Assembly (NCBI RefSeq): GCF_054482525.1
Contig: NZ_CM137006.1
Length of the DNA stretch: 64,000 nucleotides
Reading direction: 5' to 3' (one strand)
Below, piece after piece: positions 340 through 52,115 of the stretch. The stretch's first letter is position 1, and every line of letters starts with the position of its first letter. The translations under genes and the position numbers were made by a program. Below the pieces are notes generated by a model. The model had not been told where the DNA came from. It saw only the letters and a list, made by a program, of their open reading frames with translations, and did no database searches.

Positions 340-1410
340 ATGGCTAACGCCTGGCTCAGATTATGGCATGACATGCCAAATGACCCTAAGTGGCGAACAA
401 TTGCCAGGGTGTCAGGGCAGCCAATTGCAACAGTGATGGCAGTGTATATCCACCTCCTGGTGAGCGCGTCACGAAATGTCACGCGAGGTCACATTGATGT
501 CACGACAGAAGATTTGGCAAGTGCGCTCGACGTGACAGAAGAGGTAATTGATTCAATTTTGCAGACGATGCAGGGGCGGGTACTTGATGGTGATTTAATC
601 ACTGGATGGGAAAAACGCCAGGTGCTTAAAGAGGACAACGGCAATATTTCGCAAACCGCAAAATCTCCTGCAGAGCGCAAGAGGGCGCAGCGAGAGAGGG
701 AAAGAAAGCGGGAACAAAATGGCGATTGTCACGGCGCGTCACGAAATGTCACGCACATGTCACGACGAGTCACGACAGATAAAGATACAGATAAAGATAC
801 AGATCAAGAAGATCAAAACACTATGGTCCATGGCGTAAAAAACGCCACGAACCAGGCAGGGGATGTTCAGACCGTCAATCCTGGTCAGCCAGCAGGCACG
901 ACACCGGAAGCCGATTCAGCGTATGCGCTGAAAGCCGATTCGGGCGCTGTGCAGCAGGTGATGACCGCAAGGCCGGAGCAATCACACCAACTGCAGCAGC
1001 CTGAAGCCGATTCCGCCATTCAGCGGGAAGCCGATCGGGTAGTCCCGGAAAGCACCGGGCAGTCTGTGGGACGAGTGGATTATCCGGATGTGTTCGAACA
1101 GGTCTGGCGGGAGTACCCGTTGCGTGCTGGGGCAAACCCGAAGAAATCCGCTTTCAGTGCTTGGAAGGCCAGATTACGCGAGGGGGTGCCACCAGAGGCC
1201 ATGCTGGATGGCGTGAGGCGTTACGCAAGATACTTGGCGGCTACCGGGAAAACGGGAACGGAATTTGTTCAGCGAGCGACGACGTTTTTTGGACCGGATC
1301 GGAATTTTGAGAACCCCTGGTTGCTCCCGGTAAGCGGCACGAACAACCAGCGTTGTGTGAATCATATTTCTGAACCGGATAACGAAATTCCGCCGGGCTT
1401 CAGGGGGTAA
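340..1410 (+). CDS. phage replication initiator / replisome-organizer-like protein containing the origin repeats
   Basis: ORF track gives 334..1410. The ATG at 340 follows AAGAGG by 6 nt. The N-terminus MANAWLRLWHDMPNDPKWR is typical of lambdoid replication proteins. Iteron clusters lie inside the gene, as in lambda O. Confidence 0.65.
   Translation: MANAWLRLWHDMPNDPKWRTIARVSGQPIATVMAVYIHLLVSASRNVTRGHIDVTTEDLASALDVTEEVIDSILQTMQGRVLDGDLITGWEKRQVLKEDNGNISQTAKSPAERKRAQRERERKREQNGDCHGASRNVTHMSRRVTTDKDTDKDTDQEDQNTMVHGVKNATNQAGDVQTVNPGQPAGTTPEADSAYALKADSGAVQQVMTARPEQSHQLQQPEADSAIQREADRVVPESTGQSVGRVDYPDVFEQVWREYPLRAGANPKKSAFSAWKARLREGVPPEAMLDGVRRYARYLAATGKTGTEFVQRATTFFGPDRNFENPWLLPVSGTNNQRCVNHISEPDNEIPPGFRG
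466..506. repeat. iteron cluster 1: GTCAC(G) motifs at 468, 478, 488, 499 (10-11 bp phasing)
   Basis: The exact 19-mer GCGTCACGAAATGTCACGC at 466-484 is repeated at 736-754. An inverted CGTGAC lies at 531-536. Confidence 0.7.
728..776. repeat. iteron cluster 2: GTCACG motifs at 728, 738, 748, 759, 769 (10-11 bp phasing)
   Basis: Contains the second copy of the 19-mer (736-754), followed by GTCACGACGAGTCACGAC. Confidence 0.7.
778..819. repeat. AT-rich tandem repeat next to the iterons (possible unwinding element)
   Basis: GATAAAGATACA occurs twice (778-789, 790-801). It is followed by GATCAAGAA and GATCAAAAC, giving two GATC sites at 802 and 811. Confidence 0.55.
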
Positions 1411-1450
1411 GTGTTAATTTCTGGTCATGAGGTAATTTTCAGGAGGGCTT

Positions 1451-1876
1451 GTGGCAAAAGTTTTTACACAAGAAGAGCGGGAAAAAATTAAAGGGCAGGT
1501 TGTTGAACTTGTACGTCTGAGCGGTCGCGAGACGTTGCGGCAACTGGAAGCCAGGACAGGTGCGACAAGATATCTGATGAGTGTTCTCGCCAGAGAGCTG
1601 GTTGCCAGTGGCGATGTATACAACTCTGGTTACGGGTTATTCCCGTCTGAACAGGCGCGTAAGGACTGGCAAAATGCTCGCAAAAAACTCTCAAGGGCAA
1701 AGGTGAAGAAACCTGCAGTGGTTGATCCGGACCTTATCTGGTCGTTACCAGACGGCGAAATACGCCGCTACGACAGGCGCCTGAATATAATCTGTCGCGA
1801 GTGCCGGAAGAGCGAAGCTATGCAGCGTGTACTGGCATTTTATCAAGGAAATGTTAGGTATTTTAGACGTTACTAG
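1451..1876 (+). CDS. early-region protein, possibly DUF977/YdaW-like with an N-terminal winged-helix (family call uncertain)
   Basis: 141-aa ORF with a GTG start 8 nt after AGGAGGG. It occupies the position that ydaW holds in Rac-type early operons. No AAA/helicase-loader motifs are visible. Confidence 0.55.
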   Translation: MAKVFTQEEREKIKGQVVELVRLSGRETLRQLEARTGATRYLMSVLARELVASGDVYNSGYGLFPSEQARKDWQNARKKLSRAKVKKPAVVDPDLIWSLPDGEIRRYDRRLNIICRECRKSEAMQRVLAFYQGNVRYFRRY

Positions 1877-2029
1877 ATTAAAGAGCATTAGTTCAGATGT
1901 GAATTGACATTTTCATGGCGCAGGGTAGAGCCAGCGTGGTTGTCCGCTTTGCGTCAAAACCAGATATTACCAGATTTAGACATATATTCCCGATAGACCT
2001 GCTCTGATGCTACACTCTGTGCTATTTTC

Positions 2030-2716
2030 ATGACCCCAATAAAAATATTTATGACTATTGCTGATTTCAAACGGCCTAAATTGGAGCTCCCAAACGGGGC
2101 AAACAAACTACTACTGCACTCTTGCTGTGCTCCATGTTCCGGTGAAGTGATGGAGGCGCTTCAGGCCTCGGGAATCGACTACACCATCTTTTTCTACAAC
2201 CCGAACATTCATCCTCAGAAAGAGTATTTAATTCGTAAGGATGAAAATATTCGCTTTGCTGAACAACACGGCGTGCCGTTTATCGATGCTGATTACGACA
2301 CCGACAACTGGTTTGAACGTGCCAAAGGAATGGAATGGGAGCCTGAGAGGGGGATCCGTTGTACCATGTGTTTTGACATGCGTTTTGAGCGGACAGCGTT
2401 GTACGCTGCTGAAAATGGTTTCAGTGTGATCAGCAGTTCACTGGGCATTTCACGCTGGAAAAATATGCAGCAGGTTAACGAGTGTGGGCGGCGAGCTGTT
2501 GCGCATTATCCGGGTATGGTGTACTGGGATTATAACTGGCGCAAGCAGGGCGGCTCGTCCCGTATGATTGAAATCAGCAAGCGCGAAAAATTCTATCAGC
2601 AGGAATATTGTGGCTGTGTGTATTCTCTGCGCGATACCAATCTACACCGCAAATCTCAGGGACGCCCTCTTATCAAAATTGGCCAACTCCACTACGGAAA
2701 AGAAGAGAAGGAGTGA
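2030..2716 (+). CDS. queH: QueH-family (DUF208) epoxyqueuosine reductase homologue, prophage moron
   Basis: Shows the cysteine motifs [18 protein letters not shown] and QEYCGCVYS in the order characteristic of DUF208/QueH. An alternative start is the ATG at 2051. A 150-bp intergenic region with promoter-like TTGACA (1905-1910) lies upstream. Confidence 0.75.
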
Positions 2717-2748
2717 TTTTATGGATCACCTTTCTGATTGATTTTATA

Positions 2749-2777
2749 TTGGCGAGGTAACGGGAGTTAAGTAGAAT
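2749..2777 (+). promoter_or_regulatory. putative hok mRNA promoter (-35 TTGGCG, 17-bp spacer, -10 TAGAAT)
   Basis: The hexamers were read directly. The downstream leader GGGTGCTTGAGGCTATCTGTCTCAGGCATGA resembles the 5' end of hok-family mRNAs. Confidence 0.45.
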
Positions 2778-2833
2778 GGCTGCGGGTGCTTGAGGCTATC
2801 TGTCTCAGGCATGAACACCAAAGGCAGATAGAG

Positions 2834-2904
2834 AAAAGCCCCAGTTAACATTACGCGTCCTGCAAGACGCTTAACATTAATCTGAGGCTCAATCTATGAA
2901 CGGC
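2834..2904 (-). ncRNA. sok: putative Sok-like antisense RNA (ends approximate)
   Basis: A minus-strand promoter is readable: TTGCCT (2939-2934), 17-bp spacer, TAACCT (2916-2911). The predicted RNA covers the mok start region. A long stem AGCCTCAG/CTGGGGCT is followed by CTTTTC. Confidence 0.4.
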
Positions 2905-3108
2905 AAATCTAGGTTAGCCTCTTACGTGCCGAAAGGCAAGGAGAAGCAGGCTATGAAGCAGCAAAAGGCGATGTTAATCGCCCTGATCGTCATCTGTTTA
3001 ACCGTCATTGTGACGGCACTGGTAACGAGGAAAGACCTCTGCGAGGTACGAATCCGAACCGGCCAGACGGAGGTCGCTGTCTTCACAGCTTACGAACCTG
3101 AGGAGTAA
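2896..3108 (+). CDS. mok: mok-like in-frame N-terminally extended reading frame of the hok toxin
   Basis: 70-aa ORF with the same architecture as MokC/HokC, i.e. an in-frame extension. Confidence 0.55.
   Translation: MNGKSRLASYVPKGKEKQAMKQQKAMLIALIVICLTVIVTALVTRKDLCEVRIRTGQTEVAVFTAYEPEE
2953..3108 (+). CDS. hok: Hok/Gef-family type I membrane toxin (51 aa)
   Basis: MKQQKAMLIALIVICLTVIVTALVTRKDLCEVRIRTGQTEVAVFTAYEPEE is close to HokC/Gef as recalled from memory. Confidence 0.85.
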   Translation: MKQQKAMLIALIVICLTVIVTALVTRKDLCEVRIRTGQTEVAVFTAYEPEE

Positions 3109-3177
3109 GAGACCTGGCGGGGGAGAAATCCCTCGCCACCTCTGATGTGTCAGGCATCCTCAACGCACCCGCACTTA

Positions 3178-3198
3178 ACCCGCTTCGGCGTTTTTTCC
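3178..3198 (+). terminator. degenerate terminator copy at the hok mRNA 3' end (ACCCGCTTCGGCG-TTTTTTCC)
   Basis: Only a 3-bp stem remains. It matches the intact terminator at 3843-3868 apart from a 2-3 nt deletion. Confidence 0.3.
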
Positions 3199-3251
3199 GT
3201 TGATTAACTCTAGTTATTAGAGAACCGAACTTTTATTGATGGGGCAGGGAG

Positions 3252-3644
3252 ATGAAGAAACTTGTTTTAGTCGCAGGTGTAATGATTGCAACAGTAATGT
3301 TGGGAGGGTGTGCAGCAAAGATCGATCCAGCGTTGAAAGCAGAAGCAATGAAGCCACTAACATGTAATGATGAAAAGCAATGTGACTTTTATTGGAAACG
3401 AGCGCAATTCTGGTTGGCTAATAATTCCTCATGGAAAATTCAAACGGCGACAGACACGCTAATTTCCACTTATAATCCCTCTCCAAATAGTCCATTCCTC
3501 GCTTATCAAGTGAGTAAAATGCCAAATGAAGATGGATCCTCAAGAATTTTCATCAAGCCTTTTTGCGATAATATGTTTGGCTGTCAACCAAACCCCTATC
3601 AGGCAGTTGTTTCCTTTAAAAACTTCGTTAAAACAGGGCAGTAG
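3252..3644 (+). CDS. lipoprotein of unknown function (moron)
   Basis: Has a signal peptide with the lipobox LGG|C (MKKLVLVAGVMIATVMLGGCA). GGGAG lies 2 nt before the ATG. The segment is visibly AT-rich. Confidence 0.75.
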   Translation: MKKLVLVAGVMIATVMLGGCAAKIDPALKAEAMKPLTCNDEKQCDFYWKRAQFWLANNSSWKIQTATDTLISTYNPSPNSPFLAYQVSKMPNEDGSSRIFIKPFCDNMFGCQPNPYQAVVSFKNFVKTGQ

Positions 3645-3842
3645 TGTATAGCTTGGACGATAAATTATTAGTGAAAACGCCGTAAACCCTCACCCAATGT
3701 GGACTAAGTCTATCAAACATGACTGTGATGATTAGTCCGTAGTTGTTGTCTATGAAATCTGGATTGAGTCAGGGTTTAATCCAATAATTATTCTATCGTT
3801 CCTTTACAAGTCCGGTATATTACTTTCAGTTTGTTTTAGCAT

Positions 3843-5642: not shown

Positions 5643-6328
5643 ATAACCAGTATTTACAGTTTGTGCGTGAGCAGCTCATTATCGCCACCGCTGATTTGAG
5701 TGGGGCAACAAAAGGTCAGCTTGAAGCCTGGCAAGAGAATGCCATGTTCGATACAGGGCGTTACAGGCGAAAAAAAATCCGGTACCGCGATGAAGTGACT
5801 GGAAAAATGATAACGCGGGATAATCCACCAATCCCGGGAAAGCAATCGCTGGCGAAGGGGACGTCAATTCCTCTGGTCAGTCCGGTTGAGTTTTCGACAT
5901 CATCGTGGCGGCGGGCTGTTTTGTCTCTTGAAGAACATCATAAAGCCTGGTTGTTGTGGTGTTACAGCGGGAGTATTTGTTGGGAATATCAGATCGCGAT
6001 AACACAGTGGGCGTGGAATGAATTTAATACTCAATCCGGTACCAGAAAAATTGCAGGGAAAACGCAGGAACGCCTGAAAAAATTAATCTGGCTGGCGGCG
6101 CAGGCAGTAAAAGCAGAACTTTTTGGTGGGGAAGGTTATGAATACCAGGAGCTGGCATTACTGGCGGGAGTGACAACTAAAAACTGGTCCAAAACATTTA
6201 CTCGTCACTGGGTTGCAATGAAACACATTTTTCACCGACTTGATAGTGAGGCTTTATTGTTTGTAATGAGAACACGTTCAAAACAAAAGGCGGCATTTTC
6301 AAAGCAAAGTATTGCAAAAGTAGATTGA
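5639..6328 (+). CDS. late-gene antiterminator Q (QuuQ/phage-82 type)
   Basis: The ATG at 5639 overlaps the rusA stop (ATGA). Length and position are right for Q: after rusA and before pR'-tR', the tRNAs and the lysis genes. Confidence 0.7.
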   Translation: MNNQYLQFVREQLIIATADLSGATKGQLEAWQENAMFDTGRYRRKKIRYRDEVTGKMITRDNPPIPGKQSLAKGTSIPLVSPVEFSTSSWRRAVLSLEEHHKAWLLWCYSGSICWEYQIAITQWAWNEFNTQSGTRKIAGKTQERLKKLIWLAAQAVKAELFGGEGYEYQELALLAGVTTKNWSKTFTRHWVAMKHIFHRLDSEALLFVMRTRSKQKAAFSKQSIAKVD

Positions 6329-6340
6329 AAGGCATATATT
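6312..6340 (+). promoter_or_regulatory. putative late promoter pR' (-35 TTGCAA, 17 bp, -10 TATATT)
   Basis: Hexamers read at 6312-6317 and 6335-6340. A terminator lies about 55 nt downstream, analogous to lambda pR'/6S RNA/tR'. Confidence 0.55.
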
Positions 6341-6393
6341 TCATGCAAATCTGATATTTTGCCGATTTTGTACGTGATGGCAAAAGCAAACAA

Positions 6394-6418
6394 AACCCGC
6401 CCACAAGCGGGTTTTTTG
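6394..6418 (+). terminator. tR'-like intrinsic terminator (AACCCGC-CCACAA-GCGGGTT + T6)
   Basis: 7-bp stem followed by a T-run. Confidence 0.8.
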
Positions 6419-6522
6419 TGCCACTTATCTCGGATAGACATGGTGAATGCGCTAGTGGAGGAGATAAGGGTGATTTTTGAATGCTTGCAACATTGATTTC
6501 GTAACGTTATTATCCTGCGCCC

Positions 6523-6598
6523 GGCCCTTTAGCTCAGTGGTGAGAGCGAGCGACTCATAATCGCCAGGTCGCTGGTTCAAATCCAGCAAGGGCCACCA
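6523..6598 (+). tRNA. ileZ: tRNA-Ile2 type (anticodon CAT, ileX/ileZ-like)
   Basis: Cloverleaf is readable. CAT lies at 6556-6558. The sequence is very close to E. coli ileX as recalled, and CCA is encoded. Confidence 0.8.
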
Positions 6599-6599
6599 G

Positions 6600-6676
6600 C
6601 CGCCACTAGCTCATCAGGAAAGAGCGTCAACCCTTTAAGTTGAGTGTGCGAGGTTCGAGTCCCCGGTGGCGGTCCA
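6600..6676 (+). tRNA. noncanonical tRNA-like gene: anticodon loop CCTTTAA (nominal UUU, C at position 33), C1-G72, U73
   Basis: Acceptor stem CCGCCAC/GTGGCGG is 7/7. D stem is GCTC/GAGC. Anticodon stem TCAAC/GTTGA is 5/5. T stem CGAGG/CCCCG has one A-C mismatch. The T loop is TTCGAGT and CCA is encoded. Confidence 0.6.
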
Positions 6677-6678
6677 GT

Positions 6679-6754
<76 letters not shown>

Positions 6755-6757
6755 TAT

Positions 6758-6832
<75 letters not shown>

Positions 6833-6838
6833 GTTAGA

Positions 6839-6884
6839 GTCTTTCAGTCTGCGATGATGGGAAATCCCGGAGTGACTGAAAGAC
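6839..6884. repeat. perfect 11-bp inverted repeat (GTCTTTCAGTC / GACTGAAAGAC) with a 24-nt loop
   Basis: Read directly. Arms are at 6839-6849 and 6874-6884. Confidence 0.8.
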
Positions 6885-6891
6885 GTTTAAG

Positions 6892-6963
6892 TTATGAATG
6901 ATCGCTTTTTTTGCAAAATTGCTGTGCAGAAATACTAACCTTCGGGCAGGCGATCATTCATAA
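6892..6963. repeat. perfect 14-bp inverted repeat (TTATGAATGATCGC / GCGATCATTCATAA) with a 44-nt spacer
   Basis: Read directly. Arms are at 6892-6905 and 6950-6963. Arm 1 is followed by T7. Confidence 0.8.
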
Positions 6964-7038
6964 GCACTCTGCTTTTATTCCGATTAACTGTGGGTGGTTT
7001 GTTGGATAGAGTGCTTCCCTTACTGTATATATCGTTTC

Positions 7039-7063
7039 GCCCGCTTTTGCGGGTTTTTCTTTT
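7039..7063 (+). terminator. intrinsic terminator (GCCCGC-TTTT-GCGGGT + T-run) upstream of the holin
   Basis: GC stem plus TTTTTCTTTT. Confidence 0.7.
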
Positions 7064-7123
7064 CAAATCCCTTTCATTTCTCAGTGTAAAACTACGCCAT
7101 CCGTTATTTGCGGAGGTGAGGCT

Positions 7124-43603: not shown

Positions 43604-43694
43604 AAAAAAAGCCGGCATCATGCCGGCCCAAAAAATATAAACAAGACGATAAAAGGCTAATAACGGAAGCATCATGACACAGAATAATAAAAAG
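43604..43694 (-). ncRNA. rseX: RseX sRNA (5' end approximate)
   Basis: A minus-strand terminator (GCCGGCATGATGCCGGC + T7) lies at 43627-43604. In K-12, rseX lies between yedR and yedS and is transcribed toward yedS (from memory). Confidence 0.6.
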
Positions 43695-52028: not shown

Positions 52029-52115
52029 AACACATCAGATTTCCTGGTGTAACGAATTTTTTAAGTGCTTCTTGCTTAAGCAAGTTTCATCCCGACCCCC
52101 TCAGGGTCGGGATTT
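52029..52115 (+). ncRNA. dsrA: DsrA sRNA
   Basis: AACACATCAGATTTCCTGGTGTAACGAATTTTTTAAGTGCTTCTTGCTTAAGCAAGTTTCATCCCGACCCCCTCAGGGTCGGGATTT matches DsrA, including its terminator. Confidence 0.95.

Follow-up and report, generated by a model that had tools for sequence, protein, structure and literature searches.

In Escherichia coli epoxyqueuosine (oQ) is formed in transfer RNA (tRNA) by Tgt and QueA, and QueG (YjeS) then converts oQ34-tRNA to tRNA bearing queuosine (Q34) (PMC5372724). The enzyme has cobalamin and two [4Fe-4S] clusters as cofactors (PMC4646009), and in a passage that cites Frey 1988 the same source describes this step as cobalamin-dependent. QueG is encoded by a core chromosomal gene that is not mobile; QueH catalyses the same reaction with an unrelated fold. 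Here we describe a queH gene carried by a lambdoid prophage within a stretch of 64,000 nucleotides (nt) of E. coli DNA (RefSeq assembly GCF_054482525.1, contig NZ_CM137006.1), the whole of which is referred to below as the window. We consider it probable that this is a lysogenic-conversion gene for the B12-independent reduction of oQ to Q, expressed from a promoter of its own in the lysogen and probably by read-through after induction.

The Dpd-like gene clusters of phages, in which DpdA is accompanied by FolE, QueD, QueE and QueC, belong to the same biosynthetic pathway family, but they act on DNA, need a transglycosylase and have been reported without QueA, QueG or QueH; indeed a survey of viral 7-deazaguanine genes found no homologue of these last three in the viruses analysed (PMC6884629). 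The gene described here is by contrast a lone queH. The prophage of strain CM2, an HK97-type lambdoid prophage with the same cassette that is 98.7% identical to the window over positions 1-24000, is annotated without dpdA/tgt, queC, queD, queE, folE or queA, the window's own open reading frames (ORFs) having been listed and not profile-scanned. A second comparison is with the lambdoid morons, such as lom, bor and the relBE genes of Qin, which are likewise present or absent between otherwise similar prophages, lie between conserved modules and have, as does queH, a promoter-like element of their own and a foreign origin, chromosomal in the case of queH. It differs from them in that no flanking terminator was found and in that it encodes a housekeeping enzyme for tRNA modification and not a protein of surface, virulence or defence function.

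Family, fold and active site

The product of the gene is almost certainly a canonical QueH, that is an iron-sulfur, cobalamin-independent epoxyqueuosine reductase, an activity predicted from its sequence and modelled fold. A profile search matches it to PF02677 (QueH) with 221.5 bits (E 1.1e-65, profile positions 1-174 of 175) against a gathering cut-off of 23.5 bits, and residues 27-203 match the sequence of the Thermotoga maritima QueH crystal structure 7LC5 (E 8e-22). An AlphaFold2 model built on a 73-sequence family alignment has a mean predicted local distance difference test score (pLDDT) of 93.7 and a predicted template modelling score (pTM) of 0.89. When this model was compared with the PDB using Foldseek the top five matches were all T. 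maritima QueH, with target-normalised template modelling (TM) scores of 0.90-0.93 and root-mean-square deviations (rmsd) of 1.2-1.9 A; the best was 7LC5 (TM 0.93, rmsd 1.2 A), and the next matches were TtuA-type tRNA thiolases with target-normalised TM scores below 0.45. A first-pass annotation, made from the letters of the window, had placed the gene in the early/nin region of a lambdoid prophage and taken it for a homologue of DUF208/QueH, which is borne out by the sequence and by two of the checks it had proposed, profile search and structure prediction.

The annotation of this protein as QueH is in itself not new, as RefSeq already labels it 'epoxyqueuosine reductase QueH'. That name must come from a rule other than NCBIfam, in which the protein has no match, a result that says nothing against its membership of the family. 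In PHROGs it matches phrog_3217, which is labelled 'unknown function' and adds no functional information. In the PHROG 3217 profile (188 positions), as in many database representatives, the first residue is Met41 (nt 2150), past the first cysteine motif. Many phage and prophage queH gene calls therefore seem to be truncated at the N-terminus, which may be the reason for the 'unknown function' label of the family in the phage database.

The three cysteine motifs named in the first-pass annotation, CCAPC, RCxxC (here RCTMC) and YCGC, can be read directly from the sequence, and CCAPC is a fair rendering of the first of them. Numbering residues, here and throughout, on the 228-residue form of the protein, the six cysteines C32, C33, C111, C114, C194 and C196 are invariant in the 73-sequence alignment and are all kept in the prophage protein, R110, Y193 and G195 are likewise invariant, and all 18 of the 18 invariant family columns are found in it. 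In T. maritima QueH the cysteines of the CCxP[C/D], RCxxC and CGC motifs reportedly bind a [4Fe-4S] cluster and an adjacent iron.

The Thermotoga enzyme (7LC5, 7LC7, 9DEU) shares the fold of the prophage protein over 179 columns at about 30% identity, and its C9, C10, C88, C91, C168 and C170 all have counterparts there. The two differ in that the prophage protein is about 20 residues longer at each end and has CCAPC where Thermotoga has CCAPD, so that Cys36 (nt 2135-2137) stands at the position of D13, a residue which together with C9 is represented by mutant structures in the PDB (D13N, 9DCO; C9S). The CCxPC form is present in 120 of 120 close relatives of the prophage QueH, and CCAPD in 106 of 120 Thermotoga-like proteins. 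Among 150 representatives clustered at 50% identity and nearest to the query, 110 have Cys at the D13 position and 3 have Asp. From these sequences CCxPC is the common form in the query's part of the family, and it is of the CCAPD form only that structures have been solved. A QueH domain is also seen at the C-terminus of far longer database representatives of 719-1398 residues (P0245, P0249, P0255, P0258 and P0094), one of which also has a ribosomal protein S21 domain (PF01165); they may be genuine multidomain proteins or products of fused gene calls.

The length of 228 residues given in the first-pass annotation corresponds to a real ORF that starts at ATG 2030, yet the true start is probably ATG 2051, which gives 221 residues. 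This start is preferred because ATG 2051 is aligned with the gene start in Shigella, Enterobacter, Scandinavium, Kluyvera and Serratia, because RefSeq calls it, and because residues 1-10 of the long form have a pLDDT of only 59. In the same upstream alignment ATG 2030 is missing outside Escherichia and Shigella, including from Enterobacter, Kluyvera and Scandinavium.

Distribution, origin and selection

The 840-nt region formed by queH and the non-coding DNA before it is present in 1031 of 5426 complete E. coli genomes (19%), nearly always as a single chromosomal copy, and queH is intact at a coverage of at least 80% in 983 genomes. That E. coli normally has QueG, as had been stated in the first-pass annotation, is amply confirmed, with queG (the K-12 gene as query) found in 5425 of the 5426. 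Since queG is all but universal and queH is found in the smaller number, QueH is always a second enzyme in E. coli, an additional oQ reductase and never a replacement for QueG, and the two genes occur together in every queH-bearing E. coli. The same counts, together with the existing RefSeq name, temper the description of the gene as unexpected cargo, which was an overstatement.

In IMG/VR a relative is present in 190 viral contigs, the best 80 of which are identical at the protein level. A tblastn search of 50,697 phage records returned 25 matches, and the only convincing isolated phage among them is Escherichia phage HannyBb, in which queH is labelled 'hypothetical protein'. The other matches, which come from very large records or from faecal 'Bacteriophage sp.' fragments without annotation, were judged doubtful as phages.

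Standard laboratory strains differ in the presence of the gene. It is carried in a Qin-type prophage by E. coli B, REL606, ATCC 11303, E. coli C and ATCC 8739, and K-12 has no queH. In BL21(DE3) and NEBExpress hokD directly follows a truncated DUF977 gene, and comparison with E. coli B reveals a clean deletion of 1,361 bp (locus L083, positions 5707-7067, against loci L169 and L170) by which queH is lost together with a methyltransferase fragment and the 3' end of the DUF977 gene.

Beyond Escherichia and Shigella the closest proteins, at 86-91% identity, come from Enterobacter, Scandinavium and Kluyvera, and in a wider set of Enterobacterales QueH is 77-86% identical. The phage genes that flank queH in the prophage are next to it at none of these loci; in Enterobacter and its relatives the neighbours of queH are ordinary metabolic and regulatory genes, and a chromosomal, non-phage synteny conserved within the genus surrounds it in Erwinia, Pectobacterium, Serratia, Rahnella, Sodalis-like bacteria and Proteus. 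The chromosomal enzymes of Enterobacterales (Enterobacter hormaechei, Kluyvera ascorbata, Scandinavium, Erwinia, Serratia and Proteus) are 80-91% identical to the prophage protein over their full length and share with it the CCAPC, RCxxC and YCGC motifs and the N- and C-terminal extensions relative to Thermotoga; they differ in that their genes sit in ordinary neighbourhoods whereas the E. coli copy sits in a lambdoid prophage, in a host with a QueG of its own.

The prophage alleles form one group, with a mutual synonymous divergence (dS) of 0.15-0.46 compared with more than 1.0 to any chromosomal copy, and the ratio of nonsynonymous to synonymous divergence (dN/dS) between them is 0.04-0.06. 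Prophage queH is thus under strong purifying selection. Because the alleles cluster in this way and have so low a dN/dS, the comparison points to a single old capture of a housekeeping gene, the function of which would then have been maintained in the phage pool.

In E. hormaechei (L004:7181-7885) the ORF just upstream of queH resembles an integrase fragment by eye, and in Enterobacter sp. ECC-175 (L009:5680-6930) queH is about 1 kb from a 416-residue ORF resembling isocitrate dehydrogenase (icd). The icd gene is a known prophage integration site. Some of the 'chromosomal' queH copies may therefore also be in islands.

The queH cassette and its cargo slot

The coordinates of the locus are collected in Table 1. 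The first-pass annotation had given queH an upstream intergenic region of its own; the whole of 1877-2050 is indeed non-coding, but its first ~64 nt are part of the upstream DUF977 module. The cassette proper is about 0.8 kb and lies between the replication module, of which the DUF977 gene is the last, and hokD. Its left edge can be placed by comparison with other prophages, as the sequence is homologous to F1140, a related prophage without queH, up to about 1940, and to the E. coli B allele, which is preceded by a truncated methyltransferase gene, from about 1935 onwards. In DETEC-P829 the Rac-type allele is alike only from ~2002, where a -10 element begins, making this element the leftmost sequence common to all three prophage contexts. 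Judged from these breakpoints, queH and its -10 element are the unit that persists in three contexts.

Table 1. Features of the queH locus in window coordinates; residue numbers are those of the 228-residue form.
Feature	Position	Strand	Basis
DUF977 (Ren-like) gene, last of the replication module	1451..1876	+	RefSeq, near-identical prophages; HannyBb 'Ren-like exclusion protein'
Upstream portion of the cassette (putative promoter region and 5' leader)	1941..2050	+	homology breakpoints
TGcTACACT, extended -10 promoter-like element	2008..2016	+	TG 2008-2009, hexamer TACACT 2011-2016; conservation
queH, long ORF form	2030..2716	+	228 residues; start ATG 2030; ORF list
queH coding sequence	2051..2716	+	221 residues; RefSeq start, WP_000150294.1
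CCAPC motif	2123-2137 (residues 32-36)	+	read directly from sequence
RCTMC motif (family RCxxC)	2357-2371 (residues 110-114)	+	read directly from sequence
YCGC motif	2606-2617 (residues 193-196)	+	read directly from sequence
hokD/sok type I toxin-antitoxin locus, right flank	2784..3108	+	Rfam RF01794 sok, 110 bits at 2784-2958; Hok-like ORF 2896-3108; RefSeq hokD
tRNA array: Met(CAT), Lys(TTT), Thr(TGT), Gly(TCC)	6523-6832	+	four genes, after the Q antiterminator

Alignment of the 180 nt before the start codon reveals a single conserved island, ATGCTACACT or TGCTACAAT, some 35-43 nt before the ATG, which is common to prophage queH and to the chromosomal queH of Enterobacter, Scandinavium and Kluyvera, so that the closest genera have a like -10 element upstream of their chromosomal gene. 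Of 79 queH loci, 24 have the pattern TGnTAnnnT in the 70 nt upstream, where 6.2 are expected from shuffled sequences (maximum 12 in 200 shuffles), and in Erwinia TACACT or TAAACT is found at a similar position without the TG. From the position of the element transcription is predicted to start near 2023, which would make ATG 2030 almost leaderless.

Judged from five contexts (window 1877-2895 and loci including L167, L168 and L171), Rac/Qin-type lambdoid prophages seem to have a cargo hotspot in the gap between DUF977 and hokD/DUF968. The slot between DUF977 and hokD holds queH, a methyltransferase fragment with queH, an ABC-three-component (ABC-3C) system, relBE or, after deletion, nothing. 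The ABC-3C system, with a DUF2326 protein, is that of F1140, and relBE stands beside hokD in the Qin prophage of K-12, at the position that queH has in the other laboratory strains. In the O157:H7 strain Z1626 queH is followed by a cytosine (Dcm-type) methyltransferase and an NgoMIV-family endonuclease that replace hokD.

Further along the prophage is an array of four tRNA genes, and the first-pass annotation was correct that none of them is a substrate for Q, as no anticodon in it is GUN; a connection between queH and the array, which it had raised as context, finds no support and is rejected on the same ground. In a related prophage the corresponding array begins with a gene that RefSeq annotates as tRNA-Ile, and the CAT tRNA of the window may be of the Ile2 type. 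The tRNA sets of related prophages differ (Ile/Arg/Arg; Ile/Thr; Thr/Gly). Just after hokD, at 3252-3644 (+), is a gene for a predicted lipoprotein of 130 residues (MKKLVLVAGVMIATVMLGGCAAK...), hypothetical in RefSeq, that has no match in PADLOC and is missing from the AR_0013 prophage, which has queH; a role for this putative lipoprotein in superinfection exclusion is conceivable. Finally, Rfam identifies the chromosomal small RNAs RseX at 43604-43693 (-) and DsrA at 52029-52115 (+), and from these matches the right half of the window is host chromosome, with the end of the prophage at ~33 kb.

Possible roles of the prophage enzyme

It is proposed that a lineage of Escherichia lambdoid phages captured queH together with its promoter-like element from an Enterobacteriaceae chromosome. 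In the lysogen the gene would be transcribed from its own extended -10 promoter, and after induction probably also by read-through of the early rightward operon. QueH would convert oQ34 to Q34 on the host tRNA-Asp, tRNA-Asn, tRNA-His and tRNA-Tyr, and prophage queH, as a lysogenic-conversion gene, would thereby provide E. coli with a second oQ reductase that has no need of vitamin B12. In the absence of B12 oQ accumulates, and E. coli is not known to make the corrin ring de novo. Because QueG depends on cobalamin, which E. coli has to import, a lysogen would be able to complete queuosine when B12 is scarce or when the capacity to take it up has been lost. Cobamide uptake in E. coli is via BtuB and can be limiting (PMC11841063). 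In Staphylococcus aureus QueG and QueH are both kept and have different expression profiles, which the authors attribute to cofactor availability (PMC13443448). Amongst the roles suggested in the first-pass annotation, the tuning of host tRNA Q status is the one favoured by the evidence, and we would sharpen it to B12-independent completion in the lysogen because queH keeps its own promoter-like element. A physiological role of this kind for the prophage QueH is moderately likely.

There are a number of observations that weigh against such a role. In one reported condition deletion of queG left growth unchanged (PMC11841063), and queH was lost from BL21(DE3) without obvious penalty. A generic consensus promoter scan upstream of queH did not flag the -10 element, which it missed because the -35 is poor, and the case for a promoter is a phylogenetic footprint, drawn from conservation, that suggests activity without proving it. 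Furthermore there is no terminator-like site in 1400-3700, so that queH is not fully insulated. No paper on a prophage copy of the gene came up in literature searches for QueH in phages or prophages; one apparent match was the author name Quehenberger.

The absence of a terminator-like site also bears on another explanation, which is compatible with lysogenic conversion though in itself unlikely, namely that queH is an auxiliary gene of the lytic cycle, with QueH made mainly by read-through of the early operon after induction, more Q being formed and phage translation improved as a result. The gene points the same way as the replication and nin genes, no terminator-like site separates it from them, and infection by a Shewanella phage raises Q at the expense of oQ through induction of queG, which makes the step from oQ to Q a possible control point (bioRxiv 10.64898/2026.03.05.709803). 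Against this, the promoter-like element has been retained from the chromosomal ancestor, and queH is intact in defective prophages that are no longer capable of lytic growth, among them Qin in E. coli B and REL606. The idea that prophage genes are rich in NAU codons and so need Q found no support, the NAU codon fraction being 0.59 in prophage genes compared with 0.63 in neighbouring chromosomal genes (p = 0.10). A broader form of phage control, in which the phage takes over the conversion of oQ to Q and thereby sets lysogens or infected cells apart from naive ones, either by their translation programme or by how readily anticodon nucleases attack tRNA-Tyr, -His, -Asn and -Asp, would seem improbable to us; were it correct, the position of queH in a hotspot for defence and toxin-antitoxin genes would reflect conflict between phage and host or between phages and not metabolic back-up. 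It is likewise doubtful that queH is a conflict gene outright, the oQ/Q state set by QueH altering the response of these four tRNAs to anticodon nucleases (contact-dependent or colicin E5-type toxins, or tRNA-cleaving defence systems) or that of the host to infection; an interplay with nucleases directed at Q34 was among the roles suggested in the first-pass annotation. The slot that holds queH does otherwise hold or adjoin toxin-antitoxin, restriction-modification and ABC-3C modules, and a link between Q status and resistance to phages has been reported for Shewanella (bioRxiv 10.64898/2026.03.05.709803). Yet no model of PADLOC-DB v2 matches QueH or three neighbour proteins at E <=0.01, no partner gene is consistently linked to queH, and the enzyme is a near-unchanged copy of a housekeeping one. 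Colicin E5, for its part, also cleaves G34 substrates, so that Q is not strictly required.

That queH is a neutral passenger, a piece of chromosomal DNA brought in by imprecise recombination and awaiting loss, is very unlikely. The simple deletion by which BL21(DE3) and NEBExpress lost it speaks for this reading, but the low dN/dS holds over a dS of up to 0.46 among the prophage alleles, the gene is intact in the 983 genomes mentioned above, and it has been retained in at least three prophage backgrounds with different junctions. A substrate other than tRNA, for example an epoxide-bearing 7-deazaguanine base in phage DNA, a possibility that the first-pass annotation had also mentioned, is highly improbable. 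Phages do use 7-deazaguanine derivatives in their DNA, but deoxyqueuosine (dQ) was found in no phage DNA tested (PMC6884629). The prophage enzyme is 80-91% identical to housekeeping tRNA enzymes, and a role in DNA modification was rejected as the annotated CM2 relative has no partner gene for it, neither a transglycosylase nor preQ0 genes, the ORFs of the window itself having been listed rather than scanned with profiles.

What is new here in comparison with the existing annotation is that a chromosomal housekeeping gene for tRNA modification is found together with a promoter-like element as a cassette in a cargo hotspot of prophages, that it is under purifying selection there, and that it is present in some standard laboratory strains and absent from others. 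The cassette is present in about one fifth of complete E. coli genomes, in the 190 IMG/VR contigs and in one isolated phage. If the enzyme is active, completion of queuosine would be independent of B12 in strains that have queH, and strains of E. coli would differ in the modification of their tRNA on account of a prophage. Results on oQ and Q from one laboratory lineage may not transfer to another, as K-12 and BL21(DE3) lack the gene whilst E. coli B, REL606, E. coli C and ATCC 8739 have it, and REL606 and BL21(DE3) constitute a near-isogenic natural pair with and without queH.

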